Below are positions 6,668 through 63,624 of a DNA stretch of 64,000 bases, piece by piece. The notes under the pieces were generated by a model. The model saw only the letters and a list, made by a program, of their open reading frames with translations. It was not told where the DNA came from and did no database searches. Source of the DNA: a bacterium (lineage in GTDB: Bacteria > Patescibacteriota > CPR2 > UBA1875 > JAJYID01); assembly GCA_021787535.1 (NCBI GenBank), contig JAJYLR010000001.1, positions 492,321-556,320 of the forward strand, given 5' to 3'. Positions within the stretch are counted from its first letter, which is position 1. The number at the start of each line of letters is the position of its first letter. A program made the translations under genes and the position numbers.

Positions 6668-6946
6668 ATGGTTACTTTTGTCGGCCTTATAGCGTCAATC
6701 TTAACAGCAAGCGGGCTCGTACCGCAGGTGGTTAAAGGATTTATCAGAAAAAAAGTTGAAGATGTTTCCATGCTTTTTATTGTAATAGGCGGAGTCGGTA
6801 CGTTTCTGTGGTTTGTCTATGGTATATTAATTATGAACGGAGTAATCATCTTTGCAAACTCTATTAATGCCACCTGTTATGCTCTAATGTTTTTGCAAAA
6901 GGGAATTTATAAAGAAAGGGTGATGGAATGTCAAAAAACAACCTAA
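6668..6946 (+). CDS. SemiSWEET/PQ-loop family small membrane transporter (3 TM)
   Basis: 92 aa, three hydrophobic helices, GLVPQVVK PQ-motif in TM1; overlaps scpB start by 19 nt. Confidence 0.55.
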   Translation: MVTFVGLIASILTASGLVPQVVKGFIRKKVEDVSMLFIVIGGVGTFLWFVYGILIMNGVIIFANSINATCYALMFLQKGIYKERVMECQKTT

Positions 6947-7660: not shown

Positions 7661-8422
7661 ATGCGTATCAATAAGTACATTGCTTCTTGCACTAACTTAT
7701 CCCGCCGAAAGGCCGAGGTGCTGGTTTTGACGGGCAGAATAAAAATAGATTCTTCGCCTGTCATTCCCGTCCGCCGAGAGTCGGGTAAACATCCGGCGGG
7801 AATCCAGTCAACTGCTGAGACCGTAACAAATTTAGCCACTGAAGTTAGTCCTTCTGACAAGGTATATTTAGATGACAAATTGATTACTCCCCAAAGATTT
7901 GTTTACTATGCGCTTAATAAACCGGTTGGGTACACAACAACGACTTCCGACCCACATGCCGAGAAATTGATTACCAACCTCGTCCCAAATGATCCGCCCG
8001 TTTTTCCGATCGGCCGGCTTGACAAAGACACCTCCGGACTTATATTTCTCACAAATGACGGCGACTTCGCCCAGAAAATGACTCACCCAAAATACGAGAA
8101 AGAAAAAGAGTATATCTTCCAAACTGACCGAAAATTATCTGAGGAATCACTTGAAAAATTGCGAAAAGGAATTGAACTTGATGACGGCATAACCGCACCC
8201 GCAAAAGTTAAATCCCTTGCCAAGGGATGGACCCTTGGCAGTCATTCTGGCCCTGACCAGAATCTATATTCCATCACCATTCACGAAGGCCGAAACCGCC
8301 AAATCCGCCGAATGATTGATGCCGCCTGCGCAAAGGTGATCACTTTAAAGAGAATTAGAGTAGGGGATTTTGAACTAGGGGATTTAAAAGAAGGAAAATA
8401 TCAAATCTTCAAGCCAAAATGA
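7661..8422 (+). CDS. rluB: pseudouridine synthase, RsuA/RluB family with N-terminal S4 domain (carries two in-frame palindromic-repeat insertions)
   Basis: MRINKYIASCTNLSRRKAEVLV S4 motif; FPIGRLDKDTSGLIFLTNDG catalytic Asp motif; EGRNRQIRRM; start moved to MRINKY (ORF track extension upstream unsupported). Confidence 0.8.
   Translation: MRINKYIASCTNLSRRKAEVLVLTGRIKIDSSPVIPVRRESGKHPAGIQSTAETVTNLATEVSPSDKVYLDDKLITPQRFVYYALNKPVGYTTTTSDPHAEKLITNLVPNDPPVFPIGRLDKDTSGLIFLTNDGDFAQKMTHPKYEKEKEYIFQTDRKLSEESLEKLRKGIELDDGITAPAKVKSLAKGWTLGSHSGPDQNLYSITIHEGRNRQIRRMIDAACAKVITLKRIRVGDFELGDLKEGKYQIFKPK
7760..7805. repeat. palindromic repeat GTCATTCCCG...CGGGAATC (family B) inserted in-frame in rluB S4 domain
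   Basis: GTCATTCCCGTCCGCCGAGAGTCGGGTAAACATCCGGCGGGAATC; near-identical copy (rc) at 9212..9256. Confidence 0.7.
8241..8265. repeat. palindromic repeat GTCATTCTGGCCCTGACCAGAATC in-frame in rluB
   Basis: family A copy; translated as GSHSGPDQNL inside catalytic domain. Confidence 0.7.
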
Positions 8423-8424
8423 TC

Positions 8425-8447
8425 GTCATTCTGGCTTGACCAGAATC
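8425..8447. repeat. palindromic repeat GTCATTCTGGCTTGACCAGAATC (family A)
   Basis: 3 nt after rluB stop. Confidence 0.7.
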
Positions 8448-8476
8448 TTCTTTATTTTCTCGAAAATTTTGCTATA

Positions 8477-9091
8477 ATGATTTCACTTGGAGGGAATGTA
8501 CCTTCTTTTTTAAATCTGCAAACCAACAAGGAAGGGAGCACCATGTACATGTCATTTTTAGACTTTGCTTATATCGTTGCTATGATGATAGTTATAGGCG
8601 TATCCGTAGCCATCATCATTGCGACAGCAAAGGGCAGGGGCGCGAGTGAGTTCTATTACTTCCTGCTCGGTTTAATCTCCTTCATCGGCGTATCCGGCAT
8701 CATTTTTAGAGCGCTCAGTATGGGAGGGGTTCTCGAAGGGCTGAGCAAAGAATTTACCTGGACTTTCTATATTGCCTTTCCGGCAATATCGTCTCTCGTG
8801 CTCCTTGCCGTTGTCTGTGTCCATGACGATTACGTCGATCTACAGAATGATAAAAGGGCGCTCGAAGACATCCAGAACAGTCTCGGCCATTACAAGCATG
8901 GTGATAAAGACCATAACCTTTTTGTTGCAATCAGCAACCTGCAAGGGCACGTGGCGAATCAGGAAGGGGTTATTAAGTCACAGGACGAGGAACTAGCAAA
9001 ATTAAGGAAAGATAACGATCTGCTTAGGCAAGAAATGGCAGATCTGATCGACTCTATAACCACGCCAACTGTTGAAGAAGTGCTTTCATAA
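8477..9091 (+). CDS. hypothetical membrane protein with C-terminal coiled coil
   Basis: 2-3 hydrophobic helices then heptad-like EELAKLRKDNDLLRQEMADL; start uncertain (alt. Met at 8543). Confidence 0.4.
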   Translation: MISLGGNVPSFLNLQTNKEGSTMYMSFLDFAYIVAMMIVIGVSVAIIIATAKGRGASEFYYFLLGLISFIGVSGIIFRALSMGGVLEGLSKEFTWTFYIAFPAISSLVLLAVVCVHDDYVDLQNDKRALEDIQNSLGHYKHGDKDHNLFVAISNLQGHVANQEGVIKSQDEELAKLRKDNDLLRQEMADLIDSITTPTVEEVLS

Positions 9092-9113
9092 CATCTCTCT
9101 ATTCAACAAAACC

Positions 9114-9146
9114 GAGGCCCGACTCGTTCGGGTCTCTTTCTTTTTC
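9114..9146 (+). terminator. rho-independent terminator
   Basis: GAGGCCCGAC-TCGT-TCGGGTCTC hairpin then TTTCTTTTTC. Confidence 0.7.
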
Positions 9147-9156
9147 TCGTTCTGCC

Positions 9157-9188
9157 AGTGGTACACTAGACTAGTCTAGTGTACCACT
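9157..9188. promoter_or_regulatory. perfect 32-bp palindrome AGTGGTACACTAGACTAGTCTAGTGTACCACT (candidate operator/structured element)
   Basis: sequence equals its reverse complement over 32 nt. Confidence 0.4.
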
Positions 9189-9211
9189 TCGTGGGATTTA
9201 TCCGCCAAATA

Positions 9212-9256
9212 GATTCCCACCGGATGTTTACCCGACCTTTGGCGGGCGGGAATGAC
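9212..9256. repeat. palindromic repeat family B copy (reverse orientation) plus partial GTCATTCTGAGTC copy at 9264..9276
   Basis: rc reads GTCATTCCCGCCCGCCAAAGGTCGGGTAAACATCCGGTGGGAATC, ~90% identical to 7760..7805. Confidence 0.65.
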
Positions 9257-9271
9257 AAAGGTGGACTCAGA

Positions 9272-10219
9272 ATGACATTGTTTTATAATGGTATTATGAA
9301 AACTTTGATAATAGTGGTTTTAATATTTTTAGATATCATTCCTCATGGCGTTCCATTTGTCTCTGATATCCAGAAAAGTCTTGAAAATAATGTTAAGGTG
9401 GAGACACATCAAGTAGCAGACAACACTAATGAACCACTCAACTTTTCACCTCTGCCGTACCAAAACAATAAATATTACACCCTGACCGCAAGCGCCAAAG
9501 CCTACATGGTGGTTGACATGGGCACGGGGGAGATATTGTTACACCATGCAGAGGACAGTCCTCTGCAAATCGCCAGCCTGACGAAACTAATGACTGCGCG
9601 ACTGCTTTTGAAAGATGGCGACTTATCCAAAACCATTACTGTTAGGGCAAGTGATTTAAATAAGGTCCCGGCAGAAGAAGCCAGGATGTGGCTGGCCGCG
9701 GGCGACAAAGTGACGTACAACACCCTGCTCCACGGGCTTTTAATCAACTCCGGGGCCGATGCTGCTGTAACCATTGCCGACAATCTGTACCCGGGCGGGT
9801 ATAACGAATTTATTAGCAAAATGAACGAAGAAGCGGCAAATCTCAACTTGAAAAACACCCATTTCGATAACCCCGTCGGTTGGGATAGCGCAAGCAACTA
9901 TTCCACCGCCCAAGACCTGCAAATCCTGGCAAGAACATTGCTTCAAAATGATACTTTTAAGAAAATCGTCGGCACAAAGAGCGAAACGGTCTACTCTGAG
10001 AATGGCAGACCGTACAATCTGCAAAATACCAACGAACTTCTAAACGGCACTACGGTTTTTGGCATCAAAACCGGCTTTACAAACGGTGCCGGGCAGTGCC
10101 TCATCGCTGCCGGAAAAGTCAAGGGTCAGAATGTTTTAACGGTTGTTTTGGGTACGGGAGATAGGTTTGGCCAGACAAAAAACCTTCTCGAATGGACTGA
10201 TTTAGTGTATAATTGGTAG
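9272..10219 (+). CDS. D-alanyl-D-alanine carboxypeptidase paralog (peptidase S11)
   Basis: signal-like N-terminus MTLFYNGIMKTLIIVVLIF; SxxK (ASLTK), SGAD (SxN-like), KTGFT; ORF-track N-terminal extension rejected (runs through repeats/palindrome). Confidence 0.8.
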   Translation: MTLFYNGIMKTLIIVVLIFLDIIPHGVPFVSDIQKSLENNVKVETHQVADNTNEPLNFSPLPYQNNKYYTLTASAKAYMVVDMGTGEILLHHAEDSPLQIASLTKLMTARLLLKDGDLSKTITVRASDLNKVPAEEARMWLAAGDKVTYNTLLHGLLINSGADAAVTIADNLYPGGYNEFISKMNEEAANLNLKNTHFDNPVGWDSASNYSTAQDLQILARTLLQNDTFKKIVGTKSETVYSENGRPYNLQNTNELLNGTTVFGIKTGFTNGAGQCLIAAGKVKGQNVLTVVLGTGDRFGQTKNLLEWTDLVYNW

Positions 10220-37569: not shown

Positions 37570-37645
37570 TGGCAGGGGTGGCAGGCTTCGAACCCGCGAC
37601 CTTCGGTTTTGGAGACCGACGCTCTACCAACTGAGCTACACCCCT
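37570..37645 (-). tRNA. tRNA-Trp (anticodon CCA)
   Basis: AGGGGUG...CACCCCU acceptor, D-arm GCUCAGUUGGUAGAGC, anticodon loop CUCCAAA, T-loop UUCGAAG, encoded CCA; terminator hairpin CCCATC/GATGGG downstream. Confidence 0.85.
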
Positions 37646-37662
37646 AAAAAGTCCTTTTGGGA

Positions 37663-37827
37663 CTATTTTATCTCTTTATGAACGGTATGCTTTTTGTCTC
37701 TTTTACAGTATTTATTCAATTCCAACTTATCGGTAGTATTTCTATCGTTCTTCTTGGTTGTATAATTCCTCTCCTTGCATTCCTTACATTCAAGAGTAAT
37801 AATTTTCCGTGGTCCTTTCTTTGCCAT
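37663..37827 (-). CDS. rpmG: 50S ribosomal protein L33
   Basis: [27 protein letters not shown]... CxxC pairs; start at MAKKG (longer ORF runs into tRNA-Thr). Confidence 0.8.
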
Positions 37828-37853
37828 TTTATCCTTTCTATTAGTTATCTCTC

Positions 37854-37929
37854 TGGAGCCCACCACCGGGATTGAACCGGTGACCTCATCCTTACCATGG
37901 ATGCGCTCTACCAACTGAGCTAGGTGGGC
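37854..37929 (-). tRNA. tRNA-Thr (anticodon GGU)
   Basis: GCCCACC/GGUGGGC acceptor, anticodon stem CAUCC/GGAUG loop AUGGUAA, T-loop UUCAAAU, encoded CCA. Confidence 0.85.
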
Positions 37930-37949
37930 AAAATACTAGTAATATCTTT

Positions 37950-38210
37950 TTATCGCCATTCCCTAGATATTAGCTTCAATTTTTTTTCATGTGACCACTT
38001 CTTAGCCTGTATTTCCCTTTGTCTAGCCTCTGATTTACTGCCAAAAGGTTGCGACACATAAACTAGCTCAAATGGTCCTTGGTCTACTGCAAATTTAGCG
38101 CCATTACCAGAGTTGTGCTTTTTAATTCTCTCCACCAGATCAGTAGTCATGCCCACATATAACCTATTTGTCCTCGCTTTAGCTAAATAAATATACCATG
38201 GTTTCATCAC
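37950..38210 (-). CDS. GIY-YIG nuclease family small protein
   Basis: WYIYLAKARTNRLYVGMTTDLVERIKKHNSG GIY-YIG motif. Confidence 0.7.
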   Translation of the reverse strand: MMKPWYIYLAKARTNRLYVGMTTDLVERIKKHNSGNGAKFAVDQGPFELVYVSQPFGSKSEARQREIQAKKWSHEKKLKLISREWR

Positions 38211-38335
38211 AAATATTTCTTTATGGGCCTCTCGATAAACTCGAGGTCATTCGACTCTTCCAAACTCAAACCCTCCTAATTAATGATAATTCATCTAATA
38301 TCTTGGCTTGCCATGAGCGAACATAGTGAGTCGAA

Positions 38336-38421
38336 TGGTGGCGGGGGAGGGATTCGAACCCCCGAAGGCAAATGCCAGCAGATTTACAGTCTGCCCCGGT
38401 TGACCGCTTCGGTACCCCGCC
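38336..38421 (-). tRNA. tRNA-Tyr (anticodon GUA), long variable arm
   Basis: GGCGGGG/CCCCGCC acceptor, anticodon loop CUGUAAA, extended variable arm, T-loop UUCGAAU, CCA. Confidence 0.85.
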
Positions 38422-38503
38422 AGGTTTAATTAATAATTATTGATTAAAAATTCACAATTTTAGGAATATTTTAATTATGAATTTATTAATTTTTAATTGT
38501 CAC

Positions 38504-38578
38504 TGGAGCCGCCTGTCGGATTTGAACCGACGACCTACTGTTTACAAAACAGTTGCTCTACCACTGAGCTAAGGCGGC
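38504..38578 (-). tRNA. tRNA-Thr (anticodon UGU)
   Basis: GCCGCCU/AGGCGGC acceptor, anticodon stem ACUGU/ACAGU loop UUUGUAA, T-loop UUCAAAU, CCA. Confidence 0.85.
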
Positions 38579-58092: not shown

Positions 58093-58728
58093 TCAATTAC
58101 AACTTCTTATTAAAAGTAATGACTTTTTAGGCCCTGGTACGGCACCTCGAATAGCTAGAATGTTGTTTTCTTTATCTACTTTGCCAACTTTCAGGTTTTT
58201 CACTGTAACGCGAGAATGCCCCATCTGGCCCGGCATCTTCATTCCTTTGAAAACATGTTGGGGATACATAGCGCCGATCGAACCCGGTTTTCGCTGATTT
58301 CTGGAACCATGTGTCATGGGTCCGCGATGGAAACCATGTCTTTTGATGGTTCCGGCGAAACCCTTGCCCTTGCTTAATCCTGAAACGTTTATCTTCTCTC
58401 CTTCATCAAAAATATTGCAGGTTATTTCATCTCCGACTTTTATGTTTTCTGTGTTTATTTTAACTTCCTGCAAATATTTTGATTGTGATTTTGATGTTTT
58501 AAGATGCCCTTTTAAGGGTTTGGAAATCTTTTTAGCCAATCCAAAACCAATCTGTACGGCCTCATATCCATCTTTGTCCATAGACTTAATCTGGGTCACT
58601 GTGCAAGGTCCTGCTTCAACCAAAGTAATAGGAACTATTTCACCGCTTTCTGCGAAATAGTTTGTCATACCTATTTTCCTAGCCAATATCGCCTTCATTT
58701 TTCCAGACAAAAAAAACGTTTTCGACAC
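58093..58728 (-). CDS. rplC: 50S ribosomal protein L3
   Basis: ILARKIGMTNYF...KGKGFAGTIKRHGFHRGPMTHGS. Confidence 0.93.
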   Translation of the reverse strand: MSKTFFLSGKMKAILARKIGMTNYFAESGEIVPITLVEAGPCTVTQIKSMDKDGYEAVQIGFGLAKKISKPLKGHLKTSKSQSKYLQEVKINTENIKVGDEITCNIFDEGEKINVSGLSKGKGFAGTIKRHGFHRGPMTHGSRNQRKPGSIGAMYPQHVFKGMKMPGQMGHSRVTVKNLKVGKVDKENNILAIRGAVPGPKKSLLLIRSCN

Positions 58729-58843
58729 ATGGATAGTTTCCCTAAGGACTTTTCCATACCCCGACGGTTAAATATTCATTCCGTTATATTGCAATAACTT
58801 AAAAGATTATAAGGCTTCTCACACTAAAAGTCAACTCTAAAAC

Positions 58844-59386
58844 CTACTGTCTACGTTTTTTTTTAAAAATATTCAAAGGAATCAAAAGTATTTTCTTTGC
58901 TTCGGCCTTTACTGGAACATTCCAACCTATTTTTTCTTTAGCTTGAATCATCGAAAGCAGTTGAAAAGGATGAAGTTTAGTGAAATTGCCTTCAAAAGCG
59001 TGTTTTATCTTTTTTCTATCGTCTTTTGGCAACAATTTTTTGAGTTCATCTTTGATAGTCGAAGGAGTAAAAATATAAATATCAGTTATACCTTTTCGTT
59101 TAATAATATCATCCAGGATTTTATCCATTTCCTTCAAAAAACGGTGCCTGATTTCAACTTTGTTTGTCTCAAGAACAGACCCGGATTCTAAAACCCTGCC
59201 ATGCCCGGCAGTTTCAAAAAATCCTTCTTTATCTGAATAGTGTGGATATAGAAGCTTGAACTCTCCTATTTTTTCTATTCTGCCATTTTTAGCAATATAG
59301 AAATCAGCTTCGTGAAGGCCGGTAACGACAATTAAAGCTTTTTGATTTTGGAACTGTGGCAAATCTCTGGTTATCTTCATAATCAA
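58844..59386 (-). CDS. hypothetical protein (180 aa); speculative eRF1/Pelota-like fold
   Basis: ORF only; part of non-ribosomal block inserted between rplC and rpsJ. Confidence 0.4.
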   Translation of the reverse strand: MIMKITRDLPQFQNQKALIVVTGLHEADFYIAKNGRIEKIGEFKLLYPHYSDKEGFFETAGHGRVLESGSVLETNKVEIRHRFLKEMDKILDDIIKRKGITDIYIFTPSTIKDELKKLLPKDDRKKIKHAFEGNFTKLHPFQLLSMIQAKEKIGWNVPVKAEAKKILLIPLNIFKKKRRQ

Positions 59387-59434
59387 AAATATAACAAATA
59401 TTATACAAATTTTATTTGTTTAATTTTATAAATT

Positions 59435-59471
59435 AGACCCCCAGAGTGTGAACACCCTGAGGGTCTTTTTT
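59435..59471. terminator. hairpin + T-run (bidirectional terminator-like)
   Basis: AGACCCCCAGAGTGTG-AAC-ACCCTGAGGGTCT imperfect stem then TTTTTT. Confidence 0.5.
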
Positions 59472-59476
59472 AGAAA

Positions 59477-60184
59477 CTACTTGCGATGCCCAATAAATGA
59501 AAGGTTGGGTATCGACTCCTCGGCTTCCTCCACACCATCTATAACCAGATTCTCCTGTGTCCCTACTACAGCACCGCATTTTATGCAGAAACTGGTATAG
59601 ATGTGTTTATACCCTGAGGTTGCAGGAGGGGTAACCAAAGGACCTGCTTGCCCAACTGCCTCAAGCTGGCCTCCCACAAGACGCATTTTCCCGCGGCGTC
59701 TAGGCTGACAACTCTCAACCGTATAGATGGAACCGGTTTTCTCAACTTTCGAACGGCATGGTTTTCCGTCAATGTGTCCTCCACAGAGTGGTTTCATATT
59801 CTCGGGTTTGCCTTGCTGATAGCAAGCACCCCAGAGGTATGAAGGCCGAAATGCCTCGGCATAGGTCAGTATGTCTTGAGGCGGCCTACCCGCAATGCAT
59901 ACAACATTCTCAACTCCTCTACCATTGCCGAATGTGTGATCAGCCGGAAGACTAATCGAGATCTCAGGCAAATCAAACTCGATGTACATCCCTTGCGCTT
60001 TCACAAGTAGAGACTGCCTGAAAGTCTGTAATTGTACTGTCCCCCCCTTCCCGCTAGATAAACCAAAGAGTTTAAAAGATCTGAGATGCCGGCAAGCATG
60101 ACATGACCCAAGCAATGGATAAGGATTCCCTTCTCTGTCAGCGGATTTGTAATAACTTTCTGCTGTGACACTAGTATCGTCCAT
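59477..60184 (-). CDS. hypothetical Cys-containing protein (235 aa), moderately GC-elevated (~48%)
   Basis: only long ORF in any frame here; Cys pairs (CHAC, CIKCG); no family recognised. Confidence 0.35.
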   Translation of the reverse strand: MDDTSVTAESYYKSADREGNPYPLLGSCHACRHLRSFKLFGLSSGKGGTVQLQTFRQSLLVKAQGMYIEFDLPEISISLPADHTFGNGRGVENVVCIAGRPPQDILTYAEAFRPSYLWGACYQQGKPENMKPLCGGHIDGKPCRSKVEKTGSIYTVESCQPRRRGKMRLVGGQLEAVGQAGPLVTPPATSGYKHIYTSFCIKCGAVVGTQENLVIDGVEEAEESIPNLSFIGHRK

Positions 60185-60193
60185 GATATCTCC

Positions 60194-60556
60194 TTAATCT
60201 TCGGCTGTCAGTAAAAAATCGAGGTCAAGTGATACAGTTGCCAGCAAGGCGTCTTGATAATTTTTGACTCCCGAAAGACAAATAAAACCCGGATGGCTAA
60301 AATCAGGATCCTCGTCGTGATTGTTAAAATATATCACGCTTCCGGTCGACGTTTGGCAAAGGTAAACATCATGACGGTCTTTTAGCTTAAAAACTCTTCT
60401 TTCTCCCAAAAAAGTACAAAATCGACATCCGCTATCCGGACCTCCGCATTTGATTTTCTCTACAGGGAAAAAATCTTTTTTCAAAAGTCCCATCGTATCC
60501 CCTCTCTCAATCTTGAGTAGTTCATTTGAAAAGTTGCACATAAAAAAGGAGGCCAC
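60194..60556 (-). CDS. hypothetical Cys-containing protein (120 aa)
   Basis: GTG start with GGGAGG SD; CGGPDSGCRFC motif; no family recognised. Confidence 0.3.
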   Translation of the reverse strand: MASFFMCNFSNELLKIERGDTMGLLKKDFFPVEKIKCGGPDSGCRFCTFLGERRVFKLKDRHDVYLCQTSTGSVIYFNNHDEDPDFSHPGFICLSGVKNYQDALLATVSLDLDFLLTAED

Positions 60557-60684
60557 CCCTCCCTTTTATGAATTTATTTAAATCAAATTTACCACAAACT
60601 TTTTCAAGGTGTCAAATCTGTCCCATTGAAATATGGAATTTCGCTCAATTCGTCAGTTAAACTTGTCAAAACAAGATAAAATTT

Positions 60685-61164
60685 CTACTCTAAAATCGGG
60701 TGTTTTTTGACAAAGTTATGATTTTTCCACCACTTTTCGAGACCTAAATATTGTCCGGCGCCGACTGAAGCCAGGGTCAGTAAAACAAGGATGTAAATGA
60801 TGTGTTCGTCAATGAATGGATTAGTTTTGATTGGCATCACGCTAAGCCAGATTAGAAACATCAACACTGATCCCACGTAAGCAGACAGTTTCATATGAGT
60901 ACCAAGCAAAAACCCAATTCCCGCAAAAAGCAGTCCCAGTATGAAAAGCCAGTCAACCAAGGGATTGCCTGCCATACTATGAAATGTAGAAGCAAATGGT
61001 CCATGAACGCTCTTTAAATACCCGGCTGTAGGCGAAACCCCATCGATCCATGCCTTGCCGGCTTTGGTAGCATACCCCAAGCCAAATATTTTATCCAGCC
61101 CAGCCCAGAAAAGTATCCACCCTATTGCGATCCTTAAAAGTCCGAATAAATATTCTTTTTTCAT
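60685..61164 (-). CDS. DoxX-family integral membrane protein
   Basis: 4 TM helices, LLRIAIGWILFWAGLDKI DoxX signature. Confidence 0.7.
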   Translation of the reverse strand: MKKEYLFGLLRIAIGWILFWAGLDKIFGLGYATKAGKAWIDGVSPTAGYLKSVHGPFASTFHSMAGNPLVDWLFILGLLFAGIGFLLGTHMKLSAYVGSVLMFLIWLSVMPIKTNPFIDEHIIYILVLLTLASVGAGQYLGLEKWWKNHNFVKKHPILE

Positions 61165-61263
61165 TTTTTACTCCTTTAACCCTTATTTGTAAGGATTTTA
61201 ATAAATCTAAGCTTATAATAGCTTAACATAAACATATTACAATACTTTTTTTGGATTTGAAAA

Positions 61264-61289
61264 GGGCCGGCGCGCATGCGCGCCGGCCC
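61264..61289 (-). terminator. GC-rich rho-independent terminator (26-bp perfect palindrome)
   Basis: GGGCCGGCGCGCATGCGCGCCGGCCC followed on minus strand by TTTTCAAATCCAAAAAAAG. Confidence 0.65.
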
Positions 61290-61326
61290 TTAGGCGAGAA
61301 TATGTTACTTTCTCACCTTGTTACTT

Positions 61327-61932
61327 TCAGCGAGTGTTGAAATGCTCCGCCAGTTTCGCGGTATCGATTTCAACAGATTCCACAGAGATTTTCACCCCAA
61401 GAAGCCCCGGAATCTCCATTGCCTTGCATACCCCATCGGCCTCTTCGACAACCGGTTTCACGATGAAGACGTAGCCGTGAGAGTGAGAAATCTCCACGGA
61501 AGTTCCCGCTTTGATCACCTCGCCAGTCGAGGAGATCAAATAAATCGGAGTCGCCCCGACCATGACCCGGGCCATCATTGCACCGCCTCTGCCCTCATGG
61601 CAGATATCCTGGTCCATGATGGCCGTCTTCACACTCTTCCTCGGCTTTCTCTGCCAAGGCTTTGTGGACTGCACTCCGAGAAGCATACACAGATCTTCGG
61701 CAGAATTGACCACCGTTGAACCGCCCTTCTTCTGGCCGGCCTTCGGCTTGAACAGCTCCAGTCCGACTCCATTTCTGCCGTTCAGTCTTGCAACCACCCT
61801 GGTGTTTAACTGGATTGGAGCACCAGTGTGGTTATTGATGAACATTTTCCCGGTCTTGCTGTTGCCGATCGTGAGACCGTCCGTGGGTACTACAAACCCA
61901 CGGATCTTGACATGCTTCGGGTTGTTGCTCAT
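61327..61932 (-). CDS. hypothetical protein (201 aa) in a 52-55% GC compositional island
   Basis: long ORF, strong GC3 bias unlike neighbours; no family recognised. Confidence 0.4.
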   Translation of the reverse strand: MSNNPKHVKIRGFVVPTDGLTIGNSKTGKMFINNHTGAPIQLNTRVVARLNGRNGVGLELFKPKAGQKKGGSTVVNSAEDLCMLLGVQSTKPWQRKPRKSVKTAIMDQDICHEGRGGAMMARVMVGATPIYLISSTGEVIKAGTSVEISHSHGYVFIVKPVVEEADGVCKAMEIPGLLGVKISVESVEIDTAKLAEHFNTR

Positions 61933-62029
61933 GACAACCTCCTGATTGCACGGCTAACCTTTTGTAGCCGAATAGAAAAGTCTAACATAAAATCTTCATG
62001 TTGTCAATGTTTTTATGCTTCAATTTGCG

Positions 62030-62064
62030 TAAAAATCAAAGAAACCCGCAAATTGCGGATTTCT
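62030..62064 (-). terminator. hairpin terminator-like element directly after rpsJ
   Basis: GAAAcCCGC-AAATT-GCGGaTTTC stem, T-rich on both sides. Confidence 0.4.
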
Positions 62065-62094
62065 TTTTCAGTCTCTAACCAAAGTTAGAATAAA

Positions 62095-62418
62095 TTACAT
62101 TTTAATTTCGATATTCACACATGATGGCAGAGAAAGTTCCATAAGAGTATCGATCGTCTTTGCTGTCGGTTCTGTGATGTCGATTAATCTCTTGTGAGTT
62201 CGCATTTCAAACTGCTCCCGAGAGTTTTTATCAATATTTGAAGCACGGTTCACCGTCATTGATTTTCTCTCGGTCGGAAGCGGGATAGGTCCATGAACTT
62301 GTGCTCCGCTTCTTTCCGCCGTCTCGATGATCTGTTTGGCTGACTGATCTATCAGCTTATGATCATAAGACTTTAGTTTGATGCGTATTCTTTGCTTTTC
62401 TTTTGTCTCTGTTGCCAT
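62095..62418 (-). CDS. rpsJ: 30S ribosomal protein S10
   Basis: [41 protein letters not shown]. Confidence 0.94.
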
Positions 62419-62442
62419 TTGTTAATGTGCTTAATATCTTTC

Positions 62443-63624
62443 TTATTTTGTAATCTTTGATACGACACCTGCTCCAACTGTTCGGCCGCCTTCACGGATA
62501 GCAAATCTAAGTCCTTCTTCGATAGCAACCGGCTGGATAAGTTTAACATTCATAGTGATCTCATCGCCGGGCATAACCATCTCTACCTTTTCAGGCAAGA
62601 TTACTTCACCAGTAACATCAGTGGTTCTGATGTAGAACTGCGGTTTGTAACCTTTGAAAAATGGAGTATGCCGTCCGCCTTCTTCTTTGGTCAAGATATA
62701 TGCTGATGCTTCAAACTCTGTGTGAGGTGTAATAGTACCCGGCTTTGCCAGAACTTGTCCTCTTTCAATACCGGTTTTCTCAACGCCTCGGAGAAGAACA
62801 CCTGCATTATCTCCGGCTTGGCCTGAATCAAGTGATTTCTTAAACATTTCAATACCGGTTACAGTTGTTTTTTTGGTCGGCTTTAGTCCAACCATTTCAA
62901 CTTCATCACCAACTTTGACCTGGCCTCTCTCGATTCTTCCTGTCGCAACAGTACCTCTTCCTTTGATAGAGAAAACATCTTCTACCGGCATAAGGAATGG
63001 CTTATCTATATCTCTTTTCGGTTCAGGAATATATGAGTCAAGAGCGTCCATCAGATCCATAATTGCTTTCTCTTGTGTCTCGTCGCCTTCAAGAGCTTTG
63101 AGAGCGCTTCCTCGAACAATAGGAATATCTTTTCCGGGGAATTCATATTTAGTCAAAAGCTCTCGGATTTCTTCCTCAACAAGATCAAGCATTTCAGGGT
63201 CATCAACCTGATCAACTTTGTTCATGAAAACTACAATGTAAGGCACACCAACTTGGCGGGCAAGCAGGATGTGCTCTCTGGTCTGAGGCATCGGTCCGTC
63301 AGCGGCTGAAACCACTAGGATAGCTCCGTCCATCTGAGCTGCGCCGGTAATCATGTTTTTCACATAGTCAGCATGTCCCGGACAGTCAACGTGAGCATAG
63401 TGCCTTTTATCTGTTTCATATTCAACATGAGCGGTAGCAATGGTAATACCACGTTCCCGCTCTTCCGGAGCATTGTCAATCTGGTCGAATTTCTTAACCT
63501 CAGCTTTTCCTTGCTTTCCAAGCACTGCCAAAATAGCCGCTGTCAAAGTAGTCTTGCCATGATCGACATGTCCGATAGTACCGACATTAATATGCGGTTT
63601 GGTTCTTTCAAATTTTTCTGCCAT
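62443..63624 (-). CDS. tuf: elongation factor Tu
   Basis: [27 protein letters not shown]-motifs. Confidence 0.96.

Follow-up and report, generated by a model that had tools for sequence, protein, structure and literature searches.

Genes between rpsJ and rplC in a patescibacterial lineage probably mark an old operon break rather than a recent insertion

The textbook case of a gene order frozen by selection is the S10-spc-alpha cluster. In a 64,000-nucleotide stretch of a tiny patescibacterial genome, probably of the Saccharimonadia (GenBank assembly GCA_021787535.1, contig JAJYLR010000001.1, positions 492,321 to 556,320 of the forward strand; the whole stretch is called the window here and positions count from its first letter), the ribosomal protein genes rpsJ (S10) and rplC (L3) of that cluster are separated by 3396 bp (58699-62094, with the rplC start revised as described below). 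On the minus strand tuf is followed, after a 24-bp spacer, by rpsJ, then by five open reading frames (ORFs) encoding p201, a DoxX-family protein, p120, p235 and p180, and then by rplC-rplD-rplW-rplB-rpsS and onward without interruption. The five ORFs lie where a model that had seen only the letters and a list of ORFs placed them; that sequence-only reading took the block for a horizontally acquired module inserted into the operon. How did these genes come to stand between rpsJ and rplC? We put the probability at roughly 0.7 that the junction is an old, lineage-wide operon break enclosing an interval prone to gene turnover, and not a recent insertion.

In order to compare gene order across genomes, we fetched 80 loci from species-representative genomes with L3 as the probe and located on them S10, L3, EF-Tu and the five proteins encoded in the interval (the cargo); loci carry labels such as L002, which is the closest relative with 93% L3 identity. 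The distance from S10 to L3 is 1404-6196 bp in L003, L006, L008, L010, L024, L032, L033, L037 and L038 and 4.4 kb in L089, and the gap is open in 10 of the 10 Saccharimonadia-type loci carrying both genes (1.4-6.2 kb). In L009 the 8 kb upstream of L3 contain no S10. For about 58 loci in Bacillota and other phyla the gap is 28-265 bp, and for the Parcubacteria locus L044 it is 153 bp. A further 75 metagenome loci from a scan with S10 as the query, none a close relative and all at 72% identity or less, served as a background sample only. The median gap there was 55 bp over 66 loci, with more than 500 bp in 4, and 9 of the 75 had no L3 within 2-8 kb, 6 of these 9 sharing one S10 identity value and probably representing one taxon. 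The rpsJ-rplC junction is therefore tight in most cases; it is open systematically in the window's clade and only occasionally in others. The statement that the two genes adjoin in virtually all bacteria was roughly right, but the 4 wide gaps and 9 loci without a nearby L3 make it too strong. Our literature search returned no report of an rpsJ/rplC split in Saccharibacteria or the candidate phyla radiation (CPR).

The cargo is shared among relatives as well: DoxX is found in five, p180 in five, p201 in three and p120 in one or two, whereas p235 is the only cargo gene unique to the window, and the window and L002 depart from collinearity precisely at the p235 gene and nowhere else. On synteny, close relatives thus largely carry genes here too, the observation that the sequence-only reading itself said would point to a lineage trait, and all relatives with both ribosomal genes on one contig have the split. 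A single five-gene module, horizontally acquired and recently inserted into the S10 operon, would draw on the differences in cargo between relatives, on the lack of a homologue of p235 in 5.8 billion protein clusters, and on the composition of p201. The GC-rich island at this 201-amino-acid ORF is real: its GC content is 0.54 and its GC content at third codon positions (GC3) 0.67 (z about 4.4), against 0.41±0.03 and 0.395±0.06 over 54 window ORFs, and a GC-rich palindrome follows it. p201 is the only compositionally foreign-looking gene. DoxX, p120 and p180 have native GC3, and p235, with a GC content of 0.49, has its excess at codon positions 1 and 2 and a normal GC3. The homologues of p201 are also GC3-rich (0.54 and 0.64) in genomes of about 40% GC, and because GC3 stays high in three genomes though synonymous sites (dS) are saturated, the pattern is unlike un-ameliorated horizontal transfer and suggests a maintained composition rather than a recent import.

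Position and punctuation argue in the same direction. DoxX, p180, p120 and p201 occupy the same positions in genomes with only about 70% L3 identity, and hairpins and promoter-like sites divide the block into separate units, unlike one module. There is no integrase, transposase or mobility gene (Pfam, NCBIfam and PHROGs), neither junction has flanking repeats of 14 nt or more or att-like repeats, and the nearest tRNA is 20 kb from the block. PADLOC gave no defence-system match for the five proteins, and PHROGs gave nothing meaningful. We consider a recent one-step insertion highly improbable and favor the old break.

A different origin for the gap would be chimeric assembly, at either junction or at both, given that the source is a metagenome-derived contig. 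L001, however, is 100% identical over 61254-58747, covering DoxX-p120-p235-p180 and the rplC promoter and leader. L002 spans p201-DoxX-p120 and p180-L3 through to L4, and L006, L003 and L089 each span tuf-S10-cargo-L3, with S10-p201-DoxX in L006. Because independent assemblies reproduce the junction orders, assembly error is excluded for practical purposes, and we assign it a negligible probability.

If the break is old, rpsJ would now close the tuf unit, with a terminator after it, and the rplC-rplD operon would begin again at a promoter of its own, followed by a structured leader. The stretch separating the two would be a permissive slot, subject over time to the gain, loss, splitting and fusion of genes, and here would hold four or five separately punctuated units, namely p201, DoxX, p120-p235 and p180. 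The tuf-rpsJ spacer is 29-43 bp in 6 of the 8 relatives having both genes, and given the short spacer in the window and the terminator-like hairpin after rpsJ, rpsJ is probably expressed as the last gene of the tuf/str unit. Three hairpins had been proposed to split the block into sub-units, and all three fold far better than shuffled sequences, against which the z-scores of their folding energies were calculated (Table 1). The rpsJ-p201 intergenic region is conserved in L006, which also keeps the palindrome after p201 at 6689-6723. Every unit of the block is preceded by a promoter-like site, including one in the 128-bp spacer from DoxX to p120 and one (59452-59423) overlapping the hairpin after p235, and the predicted unit boundaries follow these signals. 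The best site is the TTGACT-17-TATAAT before rplC; it lies within 58729..58843, where the sequence-only reading had expected rplC to have its own promoter, and is conserved across relatives.

The gene heading the downstream operon was correctly recognized as rplC at 58093..58728, but not with its true start. The spacer between the upstream GTG or ATG and the rplC ATG varies by 7, 9, 10, 11 or 12 nt among seven relatives, and because this variation does not keep to multiples of 3 the spacer cannot be coding; the start is ATG 58698 (MKAILARK) rather than GTG 58728. The rplC starts of such genomes are thus mis-called, and annotated L3 is probably over-extended by about 10 residues. Upstream of the revised start, both promoter hexamers and a leader of about 110 nt are conserved in seven relatives in which L3 is only about 70% identical. 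The leader hairpin is a 12-pair helix with compensatory changes at 5 pairs (RNAalifold), and its covariation score was reached by 0 of 500 shuffles. In a ten-sequence alignment 93% of cells are paired, compared with 33-50% in slid controls. When trained on seven sequences, a covariance model picks out the leader in two further loci, L089 (119 bits) and L004 (46 bits), and finds no match in distant Saccharimonadia or other phyla, consistent with a leader restricted to one family-level clade. Rfam gives no gathering-score match in the window except tRNAs, and chance-level matches only in 58600-62200. The leader is a conserved covarying structure in the 5' untranslated region (UTR) of a ribosomal protein operon. 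By its position and shape, the hairpin with its U8 tract may be an autoregulatory attenuator of the rplC operon and is a candidate ribosomal protein leader.

The last cargo gene before rplC, p180, was described as encoding an unknown protein; it is related to ribosomal A-site factors. The block does split rpsJ from rplC with genes that do not encode ribosomal proteins, yet the label non-ribosomal does not suit this one. The window protein scores below threshold against baeRF_family12 (20.1 bits, cut-off 27.7) and Host_attach (18.5 bits, cut-off 26.7) and also against baeRF families 5 and 10. Among the window protein and 19 close homologues, 9 of 20 match baeRF_family12 (best E 5.6e-10) and 8 of 20 match Host_attach (best E 1.5e-12), and the family profile weakly matches the central domain of Pelota. 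An exhaustive profile search collected 828 representative clusters at 50% identity, nearly all of them standalone proteins of 145-185 amino acids. The p180 model (predicted local-distance difference test score, pLDDT, 70.8) has the aeRF1 middle-domain, RNase-H-like fold, and about 141 of its 178 amino acids align to a single domain of chains of 360-437 amino acids. p180 is a standalone baeRF-1/Balon-like protein made of the aeRF1 middle (M) domain and a basic C-terminal tail.

Two motifs, YSDKEGFF and GSV-E, are invariant in the p180 family. The loop before the helix at residues 69-96, which by topology would be positionally equivalent to the GGQ loop, carries the invariant G67-S68 plus V69/E71 and lacks the GGQ motif; because it has no glutamine, canonical GGQ catalysis is unlikely. 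By analogy with its relatives, p180 is most likely a non-catalytic factor of the hibernation or rescue type that would bind the ribosome in the A site/peptidyl-transferase region. Among the window's close kin the gene is directly upstream of rplC wherever it is present (L002-L005 and L089), and in two different genomes of distant Patescibacteria a homologue is flanked by RNase R (RNB) and the ribosome-associated ATPase YchF. The ~180-amino-acid proteins annotated as "hypothetical" or "host attachment" should be labelled baeRF-1/Balon-like. A further step, which we regard as possible but doubtful, is that the single-domain Balon/aeRF1-M family forms a minimal class of hibernation or rescue factor in Patescibacteria that needs neither EF-Tu nor a decoding-site domain. 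Together with the undescribed autoregulatory leader, one locus, made by an archaeal-like detachment of rpsJ, would then set both ribosome supply and ribosome silencing.

What else fills the interval changes from branch to branch. Across relatives the cargo includes Trp-repressor-like, NUDIX, Aminotran_4, NTPase_1, MgsA/RarA, RNase H, MIP, DUF308, ABC-F, RRM, GT2 and DJ-1 proteins. Loci of the window's own family, with L3 identity of about 70%, have in the gap a Trp-repressor-like gene or p201, DoxX or NTPase_1, NUDIX and a class IV aminotransferase or Cys-rich genes, and p180. Saccharimonadales-type loci carry RNase H, aquaporin, DUF308, MgsA/RarA, GT2 and DJ-1; this branch has a conserved cargo of its own, with a MgsA/RarA AAA+ ATPase followed consistently by an ORF of 81-111 amino acids. 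UBA4664-type gaps contain an ABC-F-type double ABC ATPase and a DUF4870-like membrane protein. The ABC-F class includes ribosome-binding translation factors. One could regard the slot as a translation accessory locus, its genes being retained beside rplC through their action on ribosomes. The Balon/aeRF1-like p180, wherever it occurs in this slot, is immediately upstream of rplC; in L037-L041 the gap is filled by an ABC-F ATPase; S10 has an RRM protein after it in L010; and L089 has an NTPase_1 protein. A large part of the cargo, however, is unconnected with translation (DoxX, aquaporin, DUF308, aminotransferase, glycosyltransferase, DJ-1 and MgsA/RarA), and we think it improbable that action on ribosomes explains the slot as a whole. 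NUDIX genes recur in rpsJ-rplC gaps (L003, L090 and L135). Small insertions at this junction are also seen in unrelated lineages, where L141 has an SMR/EamA-like transporter and a lipoprotein-like ORF (8323-9304) and L135 a NUDIX gene (1955-2461).

DoxX is the most conserved cargo gene within the window's family, with a ratio of nonsynonymous to synonymous substitution rates (dN/dS) of 0.07. The protein exceeds the Pfam cut-off for PF07681, is hydrophobic and has the character of a polytopic membrane protein, and orthologues of 64-83% identity lie directly after S10/p201 in L002, L003, L004, L006 and L008. It is thus a true family member, and small Cys-containing proteins (p120, p235 or a zinc ribbon) follow it in the window, L002, L006 and L008. 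The block had accordingly been likened to membrane thiol/redox modules such as the mycobacterial DoxX-SodA-SseA complex, with which it shares a DoxX-family membrane protein. The likeness goes no further: the locus has neither SodA nor SseA (a rhodanese), and no Sod (superoxide dismutase) or Rhodanese domain occurs in any neighbouring ORF of the 64-kb window. The Cys-rich neighbours vary, and their pattern of two CxxC motifs is like that of zinc ribbons and as a rule structural. In L003 and L004 it is NUDIX and a class IV aminotransferase that follow DoxX, DoxX is missing from L089, which keeps the Cys-rich genes, and the promoter-like site in the spacer separates DoxX from p120. One membrane thiol/redox system centred on DoxX with Cys-rich partners is very unlikely.

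The remaining cargo proteins p201, p120 and p235, like p180, have nothing above threshold in Pfam, and NCBIfam, PHROGs and PADLOC add nothing; sequence searches of the Protein Data Bank (PDB) with p201, p235 and p120 returned chance matches only. Substitutions in p201, DoxX and p120 are biased to third positions, with dN/dS of 0.05-0.23 (0.11-0.23 for p201), and the three are therefore protein-coding. The idea that the GC-rich ORFs are structured RNAs was rejected, as Rfam gives no match at the gathering score or at E≤5 and p201 is coding. p201 has three or four homologues (3 clusters plus L006), all in near relatives and always directly after rpsJ, and none in phages, IMG/VR or JGI metagenomes. 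Its AF2 model is unusable (pLDDT 31.8). The p201 mRNA folds better than shuffled sequences in three genomes (z -4.4, -3.7 and -3.3) and its antisense strand folds 5.3 standard deviations better; no such over-folding is seen in the L3 and p235 controls. For four p201 sequences the covariation term from RNAalifold is positive, hence unfavourable, and L006 disrupts many of the pairs, so that a global RNA structure is not supported despite the negative folding z-scores. Something nevertheless appears to maintain both the GC content and the self-complementarity of p201.

p120 is a small Cys-rich domain, D1, with the signature CxxC...[VI]-C-L-x-G. Its start is most likely ATG 60493, matching that of the L002 orthologue, and the gene is strongly constrained (dN/dS 0.05 against L002). 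The start of p180 likewise coincides with that of all its homologues. A 224-amino-acid protein of L089 consists of two p120-like domains (D1 versus p120, E 5e-8; D2 versus p120, E 0.002) and bears on the origin of p235, which finds only itself among the protein clusters and has no relatives in phages. This two-domain protein matches the window in one tblastn high-scoring segment pair over 60493-59813 (E 6e-6) that passes through p120, its stop codon and 124 p235 codons in the same frame. D2 resembles the N-terminal half of p235 (E 0.034, with a shared C-[WY]-Q-Q ending), and the p120-domain profile matches p235 weakly (hhalign P 0.15). Zinc-ribbon proteins with two CxxC motifs occupy the p235 slot in L002, L006 and L008, the one in L002 being a 113-amino-acid ORF. 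The alignment with these proteins involves the C-terminal ~105 residues of p235: a zinc-ribbon profile matches residues 131-208 (hhalign P 0.009), and the L008 zinc-ribbon protein matches 59728-59561 (tblastn E 0.012). Because these individually weak signals agree in register and synteny, we favor p235 being a fusion of D2 (residues ~1-125) and a zinc ribbon (~131-208) with shifted gene boundaries, and the 235-amino-acid "ORFan" is then probably a domain fusion. The arrangements would be (D1-D2)(ZnR) in L089, (D1)(D2-ZnR) in the window and (D1)(ZnR) in L002, where ZnR is the zinc ribbon, and the p120-p235 pair appears to be fast-evolving and translationally coupled. At L089 3200-4211 the D1-D2 protein is followed by a frameshifted zinc-ribbon ORF, an instance of fission and fusion among Cys-rich domains.

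Table 1. Positions of the features of the rpsJ-rplC region in the window and of corresponding features at other loci
Feature	Position	Strand	Basis or remark
tuf	62443-63624	minus	24 bp upstream of rpsJ (spacer 62419-62442)
rpsJ (S10)	62095..62418	minus	Pfam Ribosomal_S10, E 6e-36; ORF coordinates
Hairpin after rpsJ	62038..62066	minus	13 bp and U tract, -16.9 kcal/mol, z -3.7; intrinsic-terminator-like
Promoter-like site upstream of p201	61979..62007	minus	TTGACA-17-TAGACT, 10/12, TG-extended; consensus match only
p201 ORF	61327..61932	minus	lineage-restricted protein, GC3-rich, over-structured mRNA
GC-rich palindrome after p201	61262..61291	minus	perfect 15+15, -29.1 kcal/mol, z -4.4, then UUUUC; terminator-like
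DoxX gene	60685..61164	minus	Pfam DoxX 30.9 bits, cut-off 23.6
p120	longest ORF 60194-60556; likely gene 60194..60493	minus	99 amino acids from ATG 60493 (MGLLKK)
p235	59477..60184	minus	no full-length homologue detected
Hairpin after p235	59435..59471	minus	14 bp, -25.1 kcal/mol, z -5.8, weak U tract
p180	longest ORF 58844-59386; gene 58844..59380	minus	178 amino acids from ATG 59380
rplC-operon promoter	58806..58834	minus	TTGACT-17-TATAAT, 11/12 matches
rplC leader	58699..58805	minus	hairpin 58763-58723, GAAAAG, U8 tract 58716-58709, then ATG 58698
rplC (L3)	58093..58698	minus	Pfam Ribosomal_L3; start revised; head of contiguous rplC-rplD-rplW-rplB-rpsS cluster
p201 and palindrome, window	61262-61932	minus	
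p201 and palindrome, other loci	L002 209-844; L006 5978-6723; L170 250-855		
Promoter and leader, window	58699-58834	minus	
Promoter and leader, other loci	L002 2981-3100; L003 7883-8006; L004 2514-2622; L005 432-549; L006 7886-8006; L007 87-211; L008 2705-2829; L089 4941-5061		
RNase R-p180 homologue-YchF	L085 4097-7565; L086 3330-6798; L088 4082-8576		
MgsA/RarA-bearing gaps	L009 3949-5163; L024 6339-7565; L032 6251-7507; L033 4635-5738		
ABC-F-bearing gaps	L037 5701-7344; L038 5702-7345; L039 27-1379; L041 18-1403		

Elsewhere in the window, and unrelated to the rpsJ-rplC junction, the minus strand carries a tRNA cluster (Trp-CCA, Thr-GGT, Tyr-GTA and Thr-TGT) at 37570-38578 and a tRNA-Glu-CTC at 743-819.

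Several points weigh against the account given here. The clade comparison comprises about 11 Saccharimonadia-type loci, assigned by record titles and not by phylogeny, and one locus from another CPR group, and because the taxon sample is modest the depth of the operon break is not established. Sporadic splits occur in other lineages as well, so a hot-spot explanation is not unique to the clade. All promoters and terminators named here are no more than predictions, made from consensus matches or folding energies. With regard to p180, the window protein itself stays below the Pfam gathering cut-offs and its assignment rests on the family-level hits and the model; the latter is of moderate confidence, and the most conserved loop is predicted at low confidence. 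The distant homologue P0023 has no translation-related neighbours, and the L002 orthologue (2404-2941) is frameshifted, making the gene either dispensable and a pseudogene there or subject to an error in a metagenome-assembled genome of about 7x coverage. To our knowledge, no single-domain baeRF has been tested by experiment.

A clade with a permanently open first junction would be a natural experiment on the constraints of ribosomal operon architecture. The locus also points to a very small Balon relative in reduced-genome bacteria that is directly testable for ribosome binding. Such reduced-genome bacteria are episymbiotic and often dormant, and ribosome preservation is important to them.

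The individual elements of the locus can be set against characterized counterparts. In Escherichia coli the S10 leader is an autoregulatory ribosomal protein leader bound by L4 (PMC3616713). The rplC leader resembles it in having a hairpin and U tract, of attenuator-type position and shape, in the 5' UTR of the operon that carries the L3 and L4 genes. This candidate leader differs in sitting before rplC and not rpsJ, in matching no Rfam family, and in its restriction to one family-level clade. For p180, Burroughs and Aravind (2019; PMC6514570) reported baeRF-1 families that retain just the core domain, for which they predicted non-catalytic binding to large-subunit rRNA and the A site. The loop motifs of p180 show strong conservation, in contrast to most baeRF-1 families, whose loops are reported to be poorly conserved. 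Full-length homologues of Balon have been shown to bind at the A site and to inhibit translation (Helena-Bueno et al. 2024; PMC10901736), and the survey of Balon discarded any sequence with under 300 amino acids (PMC10901736). p180 has one of the three Balon domains and lacks both the decoding-site domain (N-terminal) and the EF-Tu-binding domain (C-terminal), and because the latter is absent the EF-Tu-dependent mode of Balon cannot apply to it as such. Its neighbour is rplC, or RNase R and YchF in distant members, and not HPF/RaiA or stress genes.

As to the gene order itself, multigene insertions between the operons of the str-S10-spc-alpha cluster are found in Proteobacteria and Bacilli (PMC6735719, PMC8046335). 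The window shares with them the presence of non-ribosomal genes, long tolerated, in the translation super-cluster. Unlike those insertions, the break separates the first two genes of a set that in E. coli forms one operon, is clade-wide, and is accompanied by a new rplC promoter and leader. In archaea uS10 is always separate from uL3-uL4-uL23 (PMC10833476). As in archaea, S10 here is detached from the L3-L4-L23-L2 cluster and follows an elongation-factor gene, and the L3 cluster starts its own unit. Unlike in archaea, the two units are separated by only about 3.4 kb, lie on the same strand and enclose a variable cargo, and with no evidence of archaeal ancestry the archaeal-like partition would most simply be convergence.

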